Below, piece by piece: positions 19,431 to 32,189 of a stretch of DNA of 64,000 nucleotides. The DNA comes from a bacterium (GTDB taxonomy: Bacteria; UBA8248). Under the pieces are notes generated by a model, which had not been told where the DNA came from, made no database searches, and was given only the letters and a program-made list of their open reading frames with translations. A program made the position numbers and the translations under genes. How positions within the stretch are numbered: the first letter of the stretch is position 1; each line of letters starts with the position of its first letter. The stretch is taken from positions 140,601 through 204,600 of the forward strand of contig OZ242260.1 of the NCBI GenBank assembly GCA_965207065.1, in the 5' to 3' direction.

Positions 19431-20612
19431 TTATCGATTAGTACAGTAGGGACTGCGAAGTCCCTGCCTCGCTTCCGCAAGCGGCCGGTCGAACTGTTTT
19501 ACCACGGAAGCGAGGCAGCCACTATTTGCTAAGTCCCGTTGTGCTGTCTGGAACATCTGGACATAAACTCTGAGTTTGGTGCACTGGTCACTACTTTTTC
19601 GGGTTAAGGTTGCCAGCGTTCGTGCAATCCTCTGTCTGACTCTTCGCTGGGCCAGCTCACAAGATTGGCTGATCCTTCGAGTCCTTCCGCTTCTATCGAT
19701 TACCCCACCCTGGTTCATTCCACCGCCCGGGGAACCCGGATTCATATTCTCCTCTTTGCGCATTTCTCGTTCTTCATCCCGGATCATTTGTTCCAATTCA
19801 TCCCATTTTGTTTTATCCGGCAAGTCTACTCTATCCTGCTCATCCGGCAAGTCTACTCTATCCTGCTCATCTGGCAGTTCTGCTCTATCCTGCTCATCTG
19901 GCAGTTCTGCTCTATCCTGCTCATCTGGCAGTTCTACTCTATCTTGCTCATCTGGCAGTTCTACTCTATCTTGCTCATCTGGCAGTTCTGCTCTATCCTG
20001 CTCATCTGGCAGTTCTACTCTATCTTGCTCATCTTCCTGGTTTTCCTTTATTGCTTCATCTATTTCATAGAATTCGCATGTTACTTTACCGACTGAAATG
20101 GAGGGATTCTCCCCGAGTGGATTCCACCTCTCAACACCTTCCTTGATAGCTGCGTGCTGCGAATCAATCTCTTTCATGCCAGATTCTTTATTTTGTTTAT
20201 ACTTCTGGTAGAGCAGATCTCCATGTAGTTGATTAAATGGGTATGTTTTATAAAAAGTTGTCCCGGAGCCGGCAAAAAGGCTTTCTGCAAAGCCTTCCAG
20301 CTTGGTGATCCCGAATTTTTCCAAACCATTCAATTCTAAAGTAAGTTTTACGCAATTTTTTGAACCTAAAAAGCCGTAATTTGAATGAAATGCATATTTG
20401 TATTCACCCCTATTCGTTCGCCCTACATATCTCACATCAAATGACACATTAAATCCACATGGCTTACGCTTCCACTTCACTCTGGTGTCGTAACACATAA
20501 AATCATCCCAATCTGGTCGGCTCAAATCAGCATCGGCATTAGACGACGGCATCATTGAGCAGGTCATCACAAAAAAAACAACAATCAGTTTCAACTTGGT
20601 TTTGGCATTCAT
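19431..20612 (-). CDS. Secreted hypothetical protein with acidic nonapeptide repeats
   Basis: Signal peptide; 8 x EQDR(V/A)(E/D)LPD; Cys-containing helical C-terminus. Confidence 0.75.
   Translation of the reverse strand: MNAKTKLKLIVVFFVMTCSMMPSSNADADLSRPDWDDFMCYDTRVKWKRKPCGFNVSFDVRYVGRTNRGEYKYAFHSNYGFLGSKNCVKLTLELNGLEKFGITKLEGFAESLFAGSGTTFYKTYPFNQLHGDLLYQKYKQNKESGMKEIDSQHAAIKEGVERWNPLGENPSISVGKVTCEFYEIDEAIKENQEDEQDRVELPDEQDRAELPDEQDRVELPDEQDRVELPDEQDRAELPDEQDRAELPDEQDRVDLPDEQDRVDLPDKTKWDELEQMIRDEEREMRKEENMNPGSPGGGMNQGGVIDRSGRTRRISQSCELAQRRVRQRIARTLATLTRKSSDQCTKLRVYVQMFQTAQRDLANSGCLASVVKQFDRPLAEARQGLRSPYCTNR
19815..20030 (-). repeat. Coding tandem repeat, 8 x 27 bp
   Basis: Contiguous units of about ATCTGGCAGTTCTACTCTATCCTGCTC with no spacers. 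Confidence 0.95.
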
Positions 20613-20642
20613 GGTCTTACTCCCCGAGTTGTGTGTGACAGT

Positions 20643-20954
20643 TTAATTTTCGCCATAAAGGCCAAGGTACTTTGTTGTGAAATTCGTGTTCTCCAGTCTC
20701 GTCACCTTAAAGCCATGACGCCCCAATGCCGCTCCGATATCATTCGCATCGTTCAGCGGGTTCACCAGCTTTGTCGCAGACCGCTAAGATGTGTTGCCGA
20801 TCACCAGCGCAATCCTCTATTCTGTCAGTTCTGCTCGGTGAAAATCTAAACCAGCAATCCCTCCAGTAACCCAGACAACAAAATGTAGAGCGGCATTGCC
20901 AAGCTCTCCCGCATGATTTGCAGTCCAATCTCGCAAGGATAGTGAAATTCTCAT
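20643..20954 (-). pseudogene. Truncated caspase (peptidase C14) N-terminus with two in-frame stops
   Basis: Manual translation: ...AELTE*RIALVIGNTS*RSATKLVNPLNDANDIGAALGRHGFKVTRLEN. Confidence 0.8.
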
Positions 20955-20996
20955 GACCCAAGACATCGCCGAAAGAAATTCGAGTTTTCGGCGACT

Positions 20997-21938
20997 CTAA
21001 TTCTCCAAAATACTTAGAACCTCTCTTTTGAGGGAAATTGAATCCATTTTCATATGGACAGCTCTCTTGCGAATCATCGCCAAGAGCTTTGGCCAGTCGC
21101 GCACCCAGCAACATTGATGATCGAATTCGGGGACAGAGAAAAAATGGACATTTGCCCGGGAAACTCGTTGGCGATACCGCTTCATGACCGCGGGAGGCAC
21201 AACCAAGTCCCGTCCGCCATGAAAGTGAAATTCACGCGACAACCCGAGAGCGGGCACATGCTCGGATGGATTGAGAGAATCTTTGAGAGGCGATACCTGG
21301 TGATGATTTGCCCAGGCGGAGATATCCAGAGGCGCGGCGACCGTAACCAATTCATCCACATCCATTCGGCGCGAAGCGACGAGCGTTGCAATAACGCCTC
21401 CGCCGGAATATCCGACGAGCGTGAGTCGATCTTCGGAAGACAACTTAGAATCCGTGATTGCGCGGTCCATCGCCTCAATGACTTCCGGCGAGTATCGCCC
21501 AGTAGTCCAGAGAGAAGAGTCACAACTGGTGATGAGCTTGCTGCCGACATATTGGCAGGGTCTCGCAAGATAAAGAACACCAGGGTCGGGAACGCGCAAA
21601 GCCAAGCGGAGAGCGACTGGATCATCGGGGGTAGGATCACTTGAAACCTGAGAGCGACTAAGCCACGCATTTCCGTCCCCCTCGATATAGACAACTATGC
21701 TCCCTGGGCTACGGCCCGGTTTATGGAAACCGATTATCGGAATTCCTTCGTGCGCAAACTGCTTATATTTCCAATCTGAACATGCCGGAAGCGGACATAT
21801 CCCCGATGCGCCCTCATATTCTGATGTTGCGCAACCCATCATCACACATGCTAAGACGATGAAGAACACTCGAAAGCAACGACACATACCCACATGACAG
21901 GCAACCGGATGTGAAAGCAGTGCTACCTTTCGATTCAT
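20997..21938 (-). CDS. Alpha/beta hydrolase lipoprotein
   Basis: Lipobox MMGC, VYIEGDG, ARPCQY, GYSGGG nucleophile elbow, DLVVP, FDHQCCW. Confidence 0.85.
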   Translation of the reverse strand: MNRKVALLSHPVACHVGMCRCFRVFFIVLACVMMGCATSEYEGASGICPLPACSDWKYKQFAHEGIPIIGFHKPGRSPGSIVVYIEGDGNAWLSRSQVSSDPTPDDPVALRLALRVPDPGVLYLARPCQYVGSKLITSCDSSLWTTGRYSPEVIEAMDRAITDSKLSSEDRLTLVGYSGGGVIATLVASRRMDVDELVTVAAPLDISAWANHHQVSPLKDSLNPSEHVPALGLSREFHFHGGRDLVVPPAVMKRYRQRVSRANVHFFSVPEFDHQCCWVRDWPKLLAMIRKRAVHMKMDSISLKREVLSILEN

Positions 21939-30626: not shown

Positions 30627-30924
30627 TTAATAGTCACCTTTCGTAGGATTGAACCAAGTGGCTAAGAGCCGCATTCTCATGGTGTCTTCCTGCTGGTTGT
30701 TTCTTCATATATTCACGCCATACGAGGAATGTGAATCCGGTCGTTTTGCTTTGGAAGGTTTACCTAGATGAAACGCATGCTGTTCAATACGCCAATCTTG
30801 GTAAAATCACCGATGTCATTTACCGTCGCGCCCGACCGGTTCAGATGATTCTATAAATTTCTGTGTTGCTCGTTCTGTCTATTTTGCAGTACTTAAAGTA
30901 TAGGAAGCTGAACGCTGATTCGCG

Positions 30925-30942
30925 CCCCCAATTTATGGGGGG
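30925..30942. promoter_or_regulatory. C5/G6 palindrome, candidate LuxR-type operator
   Basis: CCCCCAATTTATGGGGGG about 300 bp upstream of the autotransporter; related copy at 32563..32582. Confidence 0.45.
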
Positions 30943-31019
30943 AAGAGGTGATTTATTGGAATTTTTTCAGTGGCCAGGGAAGGGAGATATTCGGAAAGGT
31001 GGACGACGTCGTTATAGGC

Positions 31020-32189
31020 CTAGGACTGGTTCTGCCTTTGGTCTCGAGTCTCCGGAACGTAGGCCAGCGGCAGCAAAAACCGCATAAGATCTGCCTGCCG
31101 GGAGAGGCCGAGCTTGGTGAGCATGTTCTTTACGTGCCAGCGAATCGTACTTTCCTTTCGGCCCGTCGCCGCGGCGATCTCATGGATGCTCATTCCTTCT
31201 GCCAACAGCACCGCCACCCGGCTCTCCGCCATCGTCAGGCCGAGGGTCGCCCCGGCCATGGCCGGATCGATACGGAGCCGGCTCTCCGGGTCCACGACCA
31301 GAACGAGCGCCGCAACCGGCCAGACGTGAAGGTCCGTCTCCTGCTGAACCACCGGGTTGACGTGCAGCAACAGCGGAAGGGCCGATGCACCACGCCTTAC
31401 CATCGTAGAGCCGCCGATGCTCTGAGCCCCGAACGGCGGCAGCGCACGCTTAAGCAGTCCTTGGAGATTGGCGTTGTCCTCCGATTTGCGGGCGAACAGG
31501 AAACCGCGCTCGTCGAACAGACCATCTCCGGTCCTCAGTAAATCCCGGACACGGTCGTTCATTTCCACGATCCGCCCGCGCCGGTCGAGCTGGATGATGC
31601 CCAACCCGGTGGTGTCTAGCAGCTCCGTGAGGGACGCTCCCAGAGCGCCCGCGCTGGCCAGCGCCTGCCGGACGCTCACGTATAGGCGGATATGGGGCAG
31701 GAGACGGCGGAGCGAGTCGATTTGGGCGGACGACCAGCTGCTGCCGTCAACCGGGTCGTGGACGAACCAGCCAATGCTCAAGCTGTCGGGTCCGTCCAGG
31801 CGCACGTTGATGGTGTTCCGGGCATACACACGGGTCGAGAAATCATTGAATACGACCGAGGTCATCCGCTCCTTCTCGGTGTAGAGGTCGGCCATATGGA
31901 CCAGTTGGCTGTCGGGGCGATGCTGCAGGCGTGGGACACGCTCGTCCAGGGGGTAGTAGACCTCGAAGTACTCACGTTCCCATTCGTGGTGTCGTTGCCC
32001 GTGGTAGAAGAACCCCGCGTAGTAGAACTGGATGTCCTCCCCGGAATCAATATCGCCGATCACGAGGCTGTTGCCGTGCACGCGGAGGATGTCGTCGATC
32101 AGCGCGGAGGCGGTCGGCCAGTGCGTATCGTCCAGCGCCGCCTCTTGCAATGACACCAGGATGCGCTCGAACTTCCCCCGTTCGCTCAT
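31020..32189 (-). CDS. LuxR-type HTH regulator with PAS-like sensor region
   Basis: GIIQLDRRGRIVEMN; C-terminal LTMAESRVA...TIRWHVKNMLTKLGLSRQADL. Confidence 0.88.
   Translation of the reverse strand: MSERGKFERILVSLQEAALDDTHWPTASALIDDILRVHGNSLVIGDIDSGEDIQFYYAGFFYHGQRHHEWEREYFEVYYPLDERVPRLQHRPDSQLVHMADLYTEKERMTSVVFNDFSTRVYARNTINVRLDGPDSLSIGWFVHDPVDGSSWSSAQIDSLRRLLPHIRLYVSVRQALASAGALGASLTELLDTTGLGIIQLDRRGRIVEMNDRVRDLLRTGDGLFDERGFLFARKSEDNANLQGLLKRALPPFGAQSIGGSTMVRRGASALPLLLHVNPVVQQETDLHVWPVAALVLVVDPESRLRIDPAMAGATLGLTMAESRVAVLLAEGMSIHEIAAATGRKESTIRWHVKNMLTKLGLSRQADLMRFLLPLAYVPETRDQRQNQS

Follow-up and report, generated by a model that had tools for sequence, protein, structure and literature searches.

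A recurrent bacterial gene module joining predicted exported caspase-like proteases to an autotransporter

Genes for caspase-like (C14) proteases that lie beside genes for DUF4384, OmpA-like and autotransporter proteins raise the question of whether these neighbours form one functional unit in the cell envelope, and of what such a unit could do. We addressed it in a window of 64,000 nucleotides (the whole stretch of DNA that was analysed) from a bacterium of the UBA8248 lineage, for which a sequence-only reading had proposed a proteolytic cascade of the envelope. On the minus strand, positions 19431-32189 carry eight genes of one orientation and the gene for a regulator of LuxR type, placed and oriented as in that reading:

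19302-19411: left arm of an inverted repeat of ~110 nt (partner arm 38334-38444; arms 96-97% complementary)
19431-20612, minus: exported repeat protein, 393 aa (27-nt unit, 8 copies)
about 20685-20816, minus: caspase remnant, ~45 residues (C14 profile positions 2-46, 20.6 bits, below cut-off)
20997-21938, minus: alpha/beta-hydrolase-like putative lipoprotein, 313 aa (sub-threshold Hydrolase_4, PGAP1 and Abhydrolase_1)
21935-24418, minus: propeller-C14 protein, 827 aa (Peptidase_C14 39.1 bits)
24390-24782, minus: small exported protein (repeat copy; start probably the internal ATG near 24662)
24721-26730, minus: OmpA-C14-DUF4384 protein, 669 aa (OmpA, Peptidase_C14 and DUF4384 all above the Pfam cut-off)
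26761-27393, minus: solo DUF4384 protein, predicted soluble and exported, 210 aa (DUF4384 78.5 bits)
27500-28801, minus: lipoprotein with two DUF4384 domains, 433 aa (DUF4384 77.7 bits, 2 stretches)
28866-30626, minus: autotransporter-like outer-membrane protein, 586 aa (AlphaFold2 model and Foldseek)
31020-32189, minus: LuxR-type (GerE HTH) regulator, 389 aa (GerE 31.7 bits against a cut-off of 23.5; without export signal)

The products of the locus

The core consists of the autotransporter, the DUF4384 lipoprotein, the solo DUF4384 protein, the OmpA-C14-DUF4384 protein and the propeller-C14 protein, whose local copy spans 21,935-30,626; genus-specific additions extend the cluster down to 19,431 and the LuxR-type neighbour up to 32,189. 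The products of all eight co-oriented genes, the regulator excepted, begin with an export-type hydrophobic segment (mean Kyte-Doolittle value of the hydrophobic N-terminal 12-mer 2.39-2.88 in 8/8, whereas the regulator and a transposase reach 1.02 and 1.17). They are thus predicted to be extracytoplasmic, in agreement with the signal peptides and lipoboxes first read from the letters, and orthologues of four core proteins carry the segment as well (19/19, 7/7, 5/6 and 19/21). Pfam matches above the cut-off for GerE, DUF4384, OmpA and Peptidase_C14 likewise bear out the initial domain assignments.

Both proteases look catalytically intact, as had been claimed, judging from their conserved His-Cys dyads: H274/C334 is invariant in 19/19 OmpA-C14-DUF4384 proteins and H642/C706 in 6/6 propeller-C14 proteins. 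The 669-aa protein carries, in this order, a signal peptide, an OmpA-like peptidoglycan-binding domain, a metacaspase-type C14 domain and DUF4384. Its profile finds Yca1 (4f6o), a metacaspase of yeast, at E 8e-31; the two have in common the motifs SGHG...DxDGDExD...PvD...DxCHSG, and the matches of its C14 domain to Yca1, AtMC4 (6w8s) and TbMCA2 (4afp) range from E 8e-31 to 7e-19. Like the type I/II metacaspases of yeast and plants, it combines the catalytic His-Cys pair with an acidic stretch, DxDGDExD...PvD; unlike it, those enzymes are cytoplasmic and have neither OmpA-like nor DUF4384 domains. The OmpA-like domain matches the OprF C-domain (5u1h) at E 2e-23 and is probably of the typical peptidoglycan-binding type, as the wall-binding role suggested for it implies. 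The 827-aa protein combines a signal peptide, a WD40-type beta-propeller, a conserved middle region and a C14 protease whose sequence lacks the acidic stretch of metacaspases. Its propeller matches in Pfam fall below the family cut-offs, and the profile of its orthologues finds WD40 structures (PkwA, 5yzv, at E 1.8e-15), which upholds the proposed WD40-caspase architecture. The family is compact: 87 of the 90 listed relatives are close, after which identity is at most 29%.

The 433-aa lipoprotein has a charged linker rich in Gln, Glu, Lys and Arg followed by two DUF4384 domains, which appear to derive from an internal duplication (its gene holds a 300-nt repeat of 82% identity); distant orthologues have one such domain. 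The hydrophobic segment precedes a lipobox-type Cys both in this protein and in 6/6 orthologues examined. Orthologues of the 210-aa protein are 45-84% identical, with an invariant motif DTGTSG..Q.FPN. Its structure model is a low-confidence beta-sandwich plus helix (pLDDT 60), for which Foldseek returned no match at E<=1e-3 and which resembles only generic Ig-like sandwiches (best VIA Z 8.7, inside the background range stated for the tool).

A Pfam search with the 586-aa Ala-rich protein gave no match. Its AlphaFold2 model (pLDDT 78.7) places helices at 46-328 and 12 strands at 362-585, a layout of signal peptide, Ala-rich helical passenger, linker and 12-strand C-terminal barrel with terminal Phe. 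Its top Foldseek matches in the PDB are the autotransporter translocators NalP, Hbp, EspP, EstA, BrkA and AIDA-I (E 1e-10 to 6e-8, TM to target 0.57-0.74), so that the model favours the autotransporter named at the outset.

The remaining genes are peripheral. The hydrolase, the small protein and the repeat protein are limited to this genus and thus lie outside the core. The hydrolase, whose gene shares its first 4 nt with the stop region of the gene upstream, is 75% identical in the congener G008 and absent at the distant loci L027-L031; its assignment draws on sub-threshold matches (Hydrolase_4 23.1 bits against a cut-off of 27) and a GYSGG motif. The small secreted protein does have an export segment; its sequence shows it to be an incomplete tandem copy made from the 5' end of the propeller-C14 gene (24174-24325 and 24481-24632 share 71% nucleotide identity). 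It was found only in this genus (66% in G008, 51% in a second congener, G017) and has a dN/dS of 0.48. The 393-aa protein, a repeat protein as described, comprises acidic repeats (eight, of 9 residues each) and, at its C terminus, a domain that contains Cys and is 34-39% identical in the same two congeners; a Pfam search gave no match, and its gene is linked to the cluster in this genus only. The supposed third, dead caspase exists as a short C14 remnant broken by stop codons in three-frame translation, with one TAG within the C14 match, which we read as a pseudogene fragment of a third, unrelated caspase gene. The LuxR-PAS assignment held for its first half: GerE is above the cut-off, and no PAS domain was found at E<=0.01 in the Pfam search. 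A homologue 62% identical lies upstream of the cluster in L031, where PAS_8 matches below threshold. The LuxR gene adjoins the cluster in two of the six loci with at least 1 kb of upstream sequence, and was not found adjoining it in G008, L027 or L029; it is an accessory neighbour, outside the core.

Conservation and mobility of the core

Do these genes belong together? In the congener G008, the whole run of seven genes, autotransporter through hydrolase, is present at 64-84% identity. The five-gene core is syntenic in metagenome-assembled genomes of Binatia, Alphaproteobacteria and Gammaproteobacteria, at about 43-60% identity, similar per gene. Both DUF4384 genes, OmpA-C14-DUF4384 and propeller-C14 (truncated in L031) are present in 5/5 distant loci with enough flank (L027-L031). 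The counterpart of the barrel gene encodes a Pfam Autotransporter (PF03797, above cut-off) in four of the five; the remaining one is a homologue of these. Passengers in four of the five have fn3, Calx-beta or LapA-like matches, some of them weak. These autotransporters have no detectable sequence relation to the window barrel (hhalign probability 0.1), which has 20 homologues, so two unrelated autotransporters occupy the same slot. On a 3-kb contig (L032), a barrel gene of the window type is accompanied by the two DUF4384 genes and the beginning of OmpA-C14. The co-occurrence that the sequence-only reading had put forward for a synteny search was thus found. By eye, in protein database listings, the longest contig had the same size as that of one of 120 listed OmpA-C14-DUF4384 relatives for 25 of the 90 listed propeller-C14 relatives and 7 of the 20 barrel relatives. 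A looser OmpA / C14 / C14-DUF4384 pattern is widespread and includes an autotransporter in only 6/80 loci, so that the protease and DUF4384 part works without one in most lineages.

The flanks differ between loci (transposase, TRAP transporter, MutS, Rieske oxygenase, phage tail gene), which indicates that the core moves as a block; DNA similarity between the window and G008 ends at 21070 and 30565. GC content lies at 48-57%, while that of the flanks is about 60%. The arms of the inverted repeat bound a mosaic of ~19 kb in which the cluster lies together with mobile-element genes, namely an IS1595 transposase gene, a VapE-like gene and a split methylase-HNH; just outside the right arm is a Mutator-family transposase fragment. 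In a promoter and terminator scan, real sequence scored no higher than shuffled sequence. Among 22 other species of the genus searched, the cluster is intact in one and a remnant in one more, G017, where it has decayed; the module is therefore dispensable. The core genes are under purifying selection, judging from dN/dS values of 0.16-0.32. The best reading of these comparisons is that the core forms a self-contained module of envelope genes that spreads by horizontal transfer.

One could object that these are co-travelling envelope genes without a joint mechanism, the proteases serving as general peptidases, periplasmic or secreted, in turnover or in the degradation of nutrient or host proteins. 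The accessory gene content, which differs among lineages, would fit. Such an account sits poorly with five genes that stay together in Binatia, Alpha- and Gammaproteobacteria with similar divergence and unrelated flanks, and with a 4.48-Mb genome in which 3/3 C14 and 4/4 DUF4384 matches lie inside the cluster and nowhere else, a co-location that is more than chance. We consider it quite unlikely.

Related systems and a possible function

As the sequence-only reading had supposed, no characterised system of this architecture was found in PADLOC, in NCBIfam or in the literature, where only metacaspase operon catalogues come near. The catalogue of Asplund-Samuelsson et al. (2012) already covers metacaspases that are extracellular and operons that pair metacaspases with OmpA: prokaryotic metacaspases/orthocaspases whose N-terminal helices are probably signal peptides, 14 operons with OmpA domains, 23 with more than one metacaspase, and frequent fusion to WD40 (PMC3501461). 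All these traits are shared with our cluster, and the 14 OmpA operons may include its architecture; the catalogue is, however, a list without functions, and its main-text passages do not name DUF4384, an autotransporter partner or the five-gene module (PMC3501461). The recurrence of the five-gene core in synteny is new here. In the passages on Csx30 of type III-E CRISPR, one group of C-terminal domains is DUF4384 and the protein is cut by the caspase-like Csx29, which ties DUF4384 to caspase-like proteases (10.1101/2022.08.17.504292). As described there, that system is cytoplasmic and RNA-guided, with a CHAT-type protease, whereas the window cluster has no CRISPR context.

Could the module be a defence system? 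Caspase-family proteases serve in bacterial defence, and the propeller-C14 protein could sense an insult (phage, predator, toxin) and activate the wall-anchored metacaspase, envelope proteolysis then killing or lysing the cell. The methylase-HNH, VapE-like and transposase genes of the mosaic, the patchy distribution in the genus and a match to the generic PADLOC caspase model are in keeping with this. Yet beyond this match and an OmpA-like (ZorB) one, PADLOC found no system components, NCBIfam caspase_w_EACC1 scored 51.8 and 66.1 bits against a cut-off of 140, the cluster has no NTPase or nucleic-acid sensor, and the flanks of distant loci are unlike defence islands. Envelope-triggered suicide, which also leaves the conserved autotransporter partner unexplained, is in our view unlikely.

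Envelope systems offer other comparisons. In LapG-LapA-LapD, a periplasmic Ca2+-dependent cysteine protease decides the retention of a large surface protein on the cell, and in Prc-NlpI the adaptor, a lipoprotein, delivers substrates to the protease in the periplasm. Their protease families are unrelated to the C14 of the cluster, LapA is a type I secretion substrate rather than an autotransporter, and the cluster lacks a c-di-GMP receptor. The Bacteroidota-specific type IX attachment complex comprises the sortase PorU, the barrel PorV and PorE with propeller and OmpA-like domains. It thus sets an extracytoplasmic clan-CD peptidase (C25, against C14 here) beside an outer-membrane barrel, a peptidoglycan-binding propeller protein and beta-sandwich cargo tags of ~80 residues, a likeness that is analogy only. 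It raises the option of a sorting device, in which a PorU-like C14 protease would cut a DUF4384 tag and attach or release cargo, or a FapF-like barrel would export processed DUF4384 proteins. FapF is among the structural matches of the barrel (ranks 29, 33 and 35, E about 1e-5) and the PorU C-terminal domain among the generic sandwich matches (Z 7.0). However, autotransporter translocators beat FapF by 4-5 orders of E-value, four of the five distant barrels are Pfam Autotransporters, the sandwich matches have background Z and the PorE model matches the OmpA part only (36.8 bits against a cut-off of 600), which makes sorting highly improbable.

We tentatively favour, with a probability of roughly 0.45, a joint explanation in which the core links a metacaspase module, periplasmic and tethered to the wall, with an autotransporter at the cell surface. 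Both proteases would act in the periplasm, where the OmpA-like domain would hold the 669-aa metacaspase on the cell wall. Metacaspases depend on Ca2+ and are specific for Arg/Lys, and by analogy the wall-anchored protease may share these properties. The DUF4384 beta-sandwiches, in the protease and in the two small proteins, the 210-aa one presumably soluble in the periplasm, could be modules for recognition of partners or substrates. The output would be processing, maturation or shedding of the co-encoded, type Va-like autotransporter or of other surface proteins; since a surface passenger would be out of reach of a periplasmic protease after export, the action would take place in transit or on the linker. 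The LuxR-type regulator, where present, may set transcription. The inducible cascade first proposed, with the propeller protease as sensor, DUF4384 proteins as adaptors or substrates and a part in host interaction or defence, is hypothetical. The locus is thus one instance of a small and mobile module of predicted exported caspase-like proteases and an autotransporter that recurs in several unrelated bacterial lineages.

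Gene content and export signals of the cluster

The gene block proposed by the sequence-only reading is real, and its synteny across distant lineages strengthens the case. Ten open frames, all in one orientation, occupy 32189-19431 of the minus strand, and those between 30626 and 20997 are closely packed, with spacings that range from a 4-nt overlap to gaps of 106 nt; the regulator is set off from the remaining genes by 393 nt. The features, with their Pfam domains, are:

31020-32189, minus: LuxR-type regulator, 389 aa (GerE)
28866-30626, minus: Ala-rich barrel protein, 586 aa
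27500-28801, minus: putative lipoprotein, 433 aa (two DUF4384)
26761-27393, minus: D210, solo DUF4384 protein, 210 aa (one DUF4384)
24721-26730, minus: OmpA-C14-DUF4384 protein, 669 aa (OmpA, Peptidase_C14, DUF4384)
24390-24782, minus: small protein with export-type N-terminus, 130 aa
21935-24418, minus: propeller-C14 protein, 827 aa (Peptidase_C14 after WD40-type propeller matches)
20997-21938, minus: hydrolase-like protein, 313 aa
19431-20612, minus: repeat protein, 393 aa

The 586-aa, 130-aa and 393-aa proteins have no match in Pfam, NCBIfam or PADLOC. A genome-wide family search placed all three C14 matches of the 4.48-Mb genome inside the cluster, where all four of its DUF4384 matches also lie; elsewhere the genome has five further autotransporter genes of the Pfam type, which give six matches, one frame containing two of them. 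No Rfam family reached its gathering score within 18500-33600, and a scan for promoters and terminators was uninformative (9 promoter-like sites where shuffled sequences gave 9.0, and 11 terminator-like sites where they gave 14.8).

The two proteases exceed the Peptidase_C14 (PF00656) cut-off of 21.4 bits, with 86.9 bits for the 669-aa and 39.1 bits for the 827-aa protein, and both keep the His-Cys dyad that had been read from the sequence: H274/C334 is invariant in all 19 full-length OmpA-C14-DUF4384 proteins aligned, and H642/C706 in 6/6 propeller-C14 orthologues. What had been called a third, dead caspase does show C14 similarity (20.6 bits, under the same cut-off), and is a stop-interrupted fragment at ~20685-20816 rather than a whole gene. 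The profile of the 19-protein alignment matches the yeast metacaspase Yca1 (E 8e-31) over a stretch that includes SGHG, an acidic DxDGDExD...PvD and DxCHSG, the catalytic Cys column being Ala in the Yca1 entry 4f6p. Of the two proteases, the 669-aa protein has the acidic stretch and the 827-aa protein, whose N-terminal half matches WD40 propellers in structure-profile searches, lacks it. The OmpA-like domain of the 669-aa protein (PF00691, 58 bits, cut-off 27.2) matches the peptidoglycan-binding domains of OprF (C-domain 5u1h, E 2e-23), Pal and YfiB, and the motifs TD..G, N..LS..RA and NRRVE are kept across its 19 aligned relatives, with D118, R133 and N173-E177, which we take to be peptidoglycan-contact residues, invariant. 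Metacaspases are Ca2+-dependent and Arg/Lys-specific; because of these established properties, the 669-aa protein is predicted, by analogy, to be a Ca2+-dependent, Arg/Lys-specific enzyme, tethered non-covalently to the wall.

The four DUF4384 domains (PF14326) are distributed over three proteins and score 38.8-80.8 bits against a cut-off of 27. In the 433-aa protein a Cys directly follows the hydrophobic segment, as it does in 6/6 orthologues examined, four of which have a canonical lipobox; its linker is rich in Lys and Arg. An internal duplication of 300 nt (27516-27815 against 28002-28301, 82%) made this lipoprotein a two-domain protein, and its orthologues in L027-L032, loci of distant lineages, have one DUF4384 domain, often with a Val-Glu-Val-Pro repeat linker. 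Searches with the fold returned nothing at E<=1e-3 in Foldseek and DUF4384 clusters only in the ESM Atlas; in a wide VIA-align search the best match was an S-layer domain (Z 8.7), followed by macroglobulin, FnIII and Ig-like domains at Z 6-8, the tool's stated background. We conclude from the predicted fold that DUF4384 is probably an Ig-like sandwich, and nothing narrower. In Rhizobium sp. Root1334 (locus L046, 4130-7408) the gene directly upstream of the OmpA / C14 / C14-DUF4384 genes encodes a multihaem cytochrome c of 1092 aa that ends in a DUF4384 domain, which suggests that DUF4384 tags varied periplasmic proteins encoded beside C14 proteases.

Export was scored as a hydrophobic window of 12 residues at the N-terminus. 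Each of the eight products for which export signals had been proposed reaches at least 2.39, against 1.02 for the regulator and 1.17 for a transposase, and at the level of sequence all eight thus carry an export-type segment. The hydrophobic segment recurs in 19/19 OmpA-C14-DUF4384 proteins, 7/7 D210 proteins, 19 of the 21 members of the barrel family and 5/6 propeller-C14 proteins, the exception being an ORF at one locus whose start is uncertain. The regulator had been described as a LuxR-PAS protein: the LuxR part holds (GerE, 31.7 bits, cut-off 23.5); no PAS match was found at E<=0.01 in the window protein, and the PAS_8 match of its homologue in the distant locus L031 (17.3 bits) falls under the cut-off of 21.8. 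The 313-aa protein contains GYSGG, a GxSxG nucleophile motif, and has sub-threshold matches to Hydrolase_4 (23.1 against 27), PGAP1 (18.9 against 24.3) and Abhydrolase_1 (18.4 against 25.8). The gene of the 130-aa protein partly duplicates, in tandem, the propeller-C14 gene at its 5' end (24174-24325 against 24481-24632, 71% nucleotide identity), with the signal peptide and an Arg-rich segment (LR.SIRNLT.PVIRSVRTV.RP) preserved; the protein is retained in the congeners G008 and G017, is absent from the distant loci and has a dN/dS of 0.48. Eight tandem 27-nt units (19788-20084) give the 393-aa exported protein an acidic nine-residue repeat, which its G008 homologue lacks.

Conservation and genomic setting

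Co-occurrence elsewhere, on which the sequence-only reading had made its proposal depend, was found both within the genus and far from it. Among 60 relatives searched, G008 is the one species, out of 22 others in the genus, with a full-length orthologue of the 669-aa protein, and the congener G017 has only a C-terminal scrap of it. The same seven genes follow one another in the same order in G008, succeeded by a diverged homologue of the repeat protein; no LuxR gene is present at this cluster, and tblastn for a remnant found nothing at E<=1. The core genes are under purifying selection (dN/dS of 0.16-0.32 between the window and G008), and DNA similarity between the two stops at the module edges.

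Protein identity between G008 and the window
Barrel protein: 64%
2xDUF4384 lipoprotein: 66%
D210: 84%
OmpA-C14-DUF4384: 82%
Small protein: 66%
Propeller-C14: 79%
Hydrolase: 75%

The module is being lost in G017. The decayed cluster of this species (L026, G017:C15, ~8375-10100) consists of the C-terminus of OmpA-C14-DUF4384, the small protein, the propeller-C14 N-terminus fused to the hydrolase C-terminus, and the C-terminus of the repeat protein.

The OmpA+C14+DUF4384 architecture is found in at least 120 clusters of the protein database at 49-93% identity, one of them named Candidatus Spongiihabitans, and relatives of the OmpA-C14-DUF4384 protein number 764 at E<=1e-10. When one genome per species was scanned, 80 loci emerged, of which seven hold close relatives of the full-length type (46-83% identity).

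Loci with close OmpA-C14-DUF4384 relatives, lineages as labelled
Binatia: L027, L029, L033
Alphaproteobacteria: L028, L030, L031
Gammaproteobacteria: L032

In all five distant loci with enough flank, the propeller-C14 gene and both DUF4384 genes are again neighbours in the same order; every core gene shows a comparable identity to the window (~43-60%), and the flanking genes vary. One of the five, L031 (8043-13151), has a propeller-C14 shortened to 323 aa that lacks the C14 part; the next gene encodes a 1361-aa protein carrying phage tail (GpJ-like) domains. Contig sharing was gauged roughly, by eye, from the longest contig: that of 25 of the 90 propeller-C14 relatives, and of 7 of the 20 barrel relatives, has the same size as that of a listed OmpA-C14-DUF4384 relative. 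Beside this conserved linkage, the possibility that the genes have no joint mechanism seems to us improbable. When D210 (residues 36-210) was paired with residues 185-669 of the 669-aa protein, its C14-DUF4384 part, complex prediction scored 0.00 against a mark of 0.32, a result with no weight for or against binding.

The 80 loci were counted with HMMs from this family's alignments only, and the frequencies, including that of OmpA, are biased upward because the loci were picked by patterns that include the query OmpA motif and C14 active site.

Gene types among the 80 loci (frequencies biased upward)
C14-DUF4384 fusion: 58
At least two C14 genes: 45
OmpA-like domain: 40 (33 as a separate gene)
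OmpA, C14-DUF4384 and a second C14 together: 30
Solo DUF4384 gene: 23
Propeller-C14: 10
Autotransporter: 6

The order OmpA / C14 / C14-DUF4384 recurs in the looser loci L034-L053, among them records labelled Azospirillum, Rhizobium sp. Root1334, Roseospira and Cucumibacter. Within a broad class of exported clusters that combine C14, DUF4384 and OmpA, the window cluster forms a well-defined subtype, set apart by its OmpA fusion, propeller-C14 and autotransporter.

The cluster sits within a mobile-element mosaic. GC falls from ~60% to 48-57% over 18-36 kb, and inverted repeats of ~110 nt (19302-19411 and 38334-38444, 96-97% complementary) flank the cluster in a 19-kb mosaic with these elements:

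33594-34532: IS1595 transposase, inside the mosaic
34887-36135: split N6/N4 DNA methylase with HNH, inside the mosaic
36308-37825: VapE-like gene, inside the mosaic
38913-39560: Mutator-family transposase fragment, just past the right arm

Copies of the repeat-arm sequence also lie beside the decayed G017 cluster (L026, ~10087-10392). Two more stretches, 36001-38000 and 54001-58000, have a low GC of 41-43% (background ~60%), which suggests further foreign DNA in the window. Just outside the mosaic, 17560-18588 (plus strand) encodes a 342-aa putative lipoprotein with an LTVGC lipobox and a Pro-rich linker, and with no match in Pfam, NCBIfam or PADLOC. Adjoining the left repeat arm, 18796-19084 (minus strand) gave tmRNA and permuted-tmRNA matches of 20.4 and 26 bits, under the gathering score of 47; we dropped the idea of an ssrA-integrated island, since these weak matches are not the tmRNA of the genome (C1:1828047) and ARAGORN finds none in the window.

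The barrel protein and the autotransporter slot

The AlphaFold2 model of the 586-aa protein, built on an alignment of 20 homologues (pLDDT 78.7), comprises a signal-like helix, long helices (46-328), a low-confidence disordered linker of 33 residues (329-361) between the last helix and strand 1, and 12 strands (362-585), and the protein ends in an aromatic residue (...VKIFF). On this predicted model it has the type Va layout of signal peptide, passenger, 12-strand barrel and aromatic end. The best Foldseek matches are the translocators of NalP, Hbp, EspP, EstA, BrkA, AIDA-I and AaaA (E 1e-10 to 9e-8), with translocators or whole autotransporters making up 13 of the best 14 matches listed, in a ranking that omits similar further chains past rank 10; a PDB sequence search with the profile of the protein gave nothing under E 0.29, leaving the fold search as the only informative one. 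Pfam Autotransporter (PF03797) matches neither this protein nor its G008 orthologue. Because translocators rank first, we accept the protein as an autotransporter by its predicted fold, which upholds the Ala-rich autotransporter of the sequence-only reading. Other barrels of 12 to 18 strands, including FapF, rank lower in the same search (E 1e-7 to 1e-5), and we regard it as very improbable that the cluster is a sortase- or FapF-like sorting device.

The distant loci L027-L031 share one further large gene, which is not homologous to the window barrel. It matches Pfam Autotransporter in 4/5 loci (36.9-43.1 bits, cut-off 26), and weak fn3, Calx-beta or LapA-like passenger matches were found in the large gene of 4/5; the window barrel shows no BLAST relation to these distant autotransporters, and hhalign gives a probability of 0.1. 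Since the large gene of four of the five loci matches Pfam Autotransporter, the autotransporter is a constant partner, in a slot filled by two unrelated autotransporter families. This constancy is in our view the strongest hint of functional coupling.

A possible role at the cell envelope

To our knowledge, work on bacterial caspase homologues has treated them almost solely as cytoplasmic enzymes of death or defence. Here a suicide or defence device triggered at the envelope is an unlikely reading: PADLOC-DB 2.0 gave matches to a generic 'caspase' model and to the OmpA-like ZorB only, with 8/10 proteins unmatched and none of its defined anti-phage systems recognised in the cluster, and the NCBIfam model of EACC1-associated caspases (NF047832) scored 51.8 and 66.1 bits, under its cut-off of 140. 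The account that we favour, plausible and unproven, to which we give a probability of about 45%, is that of a proteolytic unit held in the periplasm between the wall and the outer membrane. The DUF4384 sandwiches would act as its recognition modules, on the protease, on the lipoprotein with its Lys/Arg-rich linker and on a soluble protein, and the output would be linked to the co-encoded autotransporter. A more elaborate version, which we consider improbable as a whole, is a periplasmic caspase signalling module, spread between phyla as one mobile cassette, in which DUF4384 would recruit the lipoprotein and the soluble partner homotypically to the wall-anchored metacaspase, much as cytoplasmic death-fold or effector-associated domains recruit their partners, the propeller-C14 would be an upstream sensor protease, and the output would be a regulated switch of the envelope or cell surface, whether by shedding of the autotransporter, by sortase-like attachment or by programmed lysis. 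LapG/LapA, Prc-NlpI, NalP, FapF/FapD and PorU/PorE serve as comparison systems for the cluster, as analogies only.

DUF4384 is found in some Csx30 substrates and is often fused to proteases, according to the available portions of one study (10.1101/2022.08.17.504292); we found no other link of DUF4384 to caspase-type proteolysis in the literature. In their main text, Asplund-Samuelsson et al. 2012 (PMC3501461) had already noted metacaspases that are probably extracellular, 14 metacaspase operons with OmpA, and operons with several metacaspases. The available text of the literature on orthocaspases and metacaspases with periplasm, OmpA, WD40 or autotransporter leaves the module undescribed, and the supplementary operon tables of PMC3501461 could contain the architecture; searches on metacaspases in sponge symbionts and on bacterial metacaspases with envelope found nothing relevant. 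No characterised system of this architecture emerged from the literature, PADLOC-DB or NCBIfam, in agreement with the sequence-only reading. The cluster is a variant within an already known, uncharacterised kind, the exported metacaspase operons.

The role of the many exported caspase homologues is a question raised since 2012, as the main text of PMC3501461 puts it. The cluster offers a compact entry point, as it brings together two intact exported C14 proteases (one of them predicted to be wall-anchored), the only DUF4384 proteins of the genome and a predicted surface autotransporter, in a set kept together across distant lineages. Going by record labels, related OmpA / C14 / C14-DUF4384 clusters occur in cultured Azospirillum, Rhizobium sp. 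Root1334, Roseospira visakhapatnamensis and Cucumibacter marinus, and genetics is therefore feasible. Such work could give a function to DUF4384, a domain that the searched literature names in only seven papers, and could reveal whether caspase-type proteolysis regulates the Gram-negative envelope.
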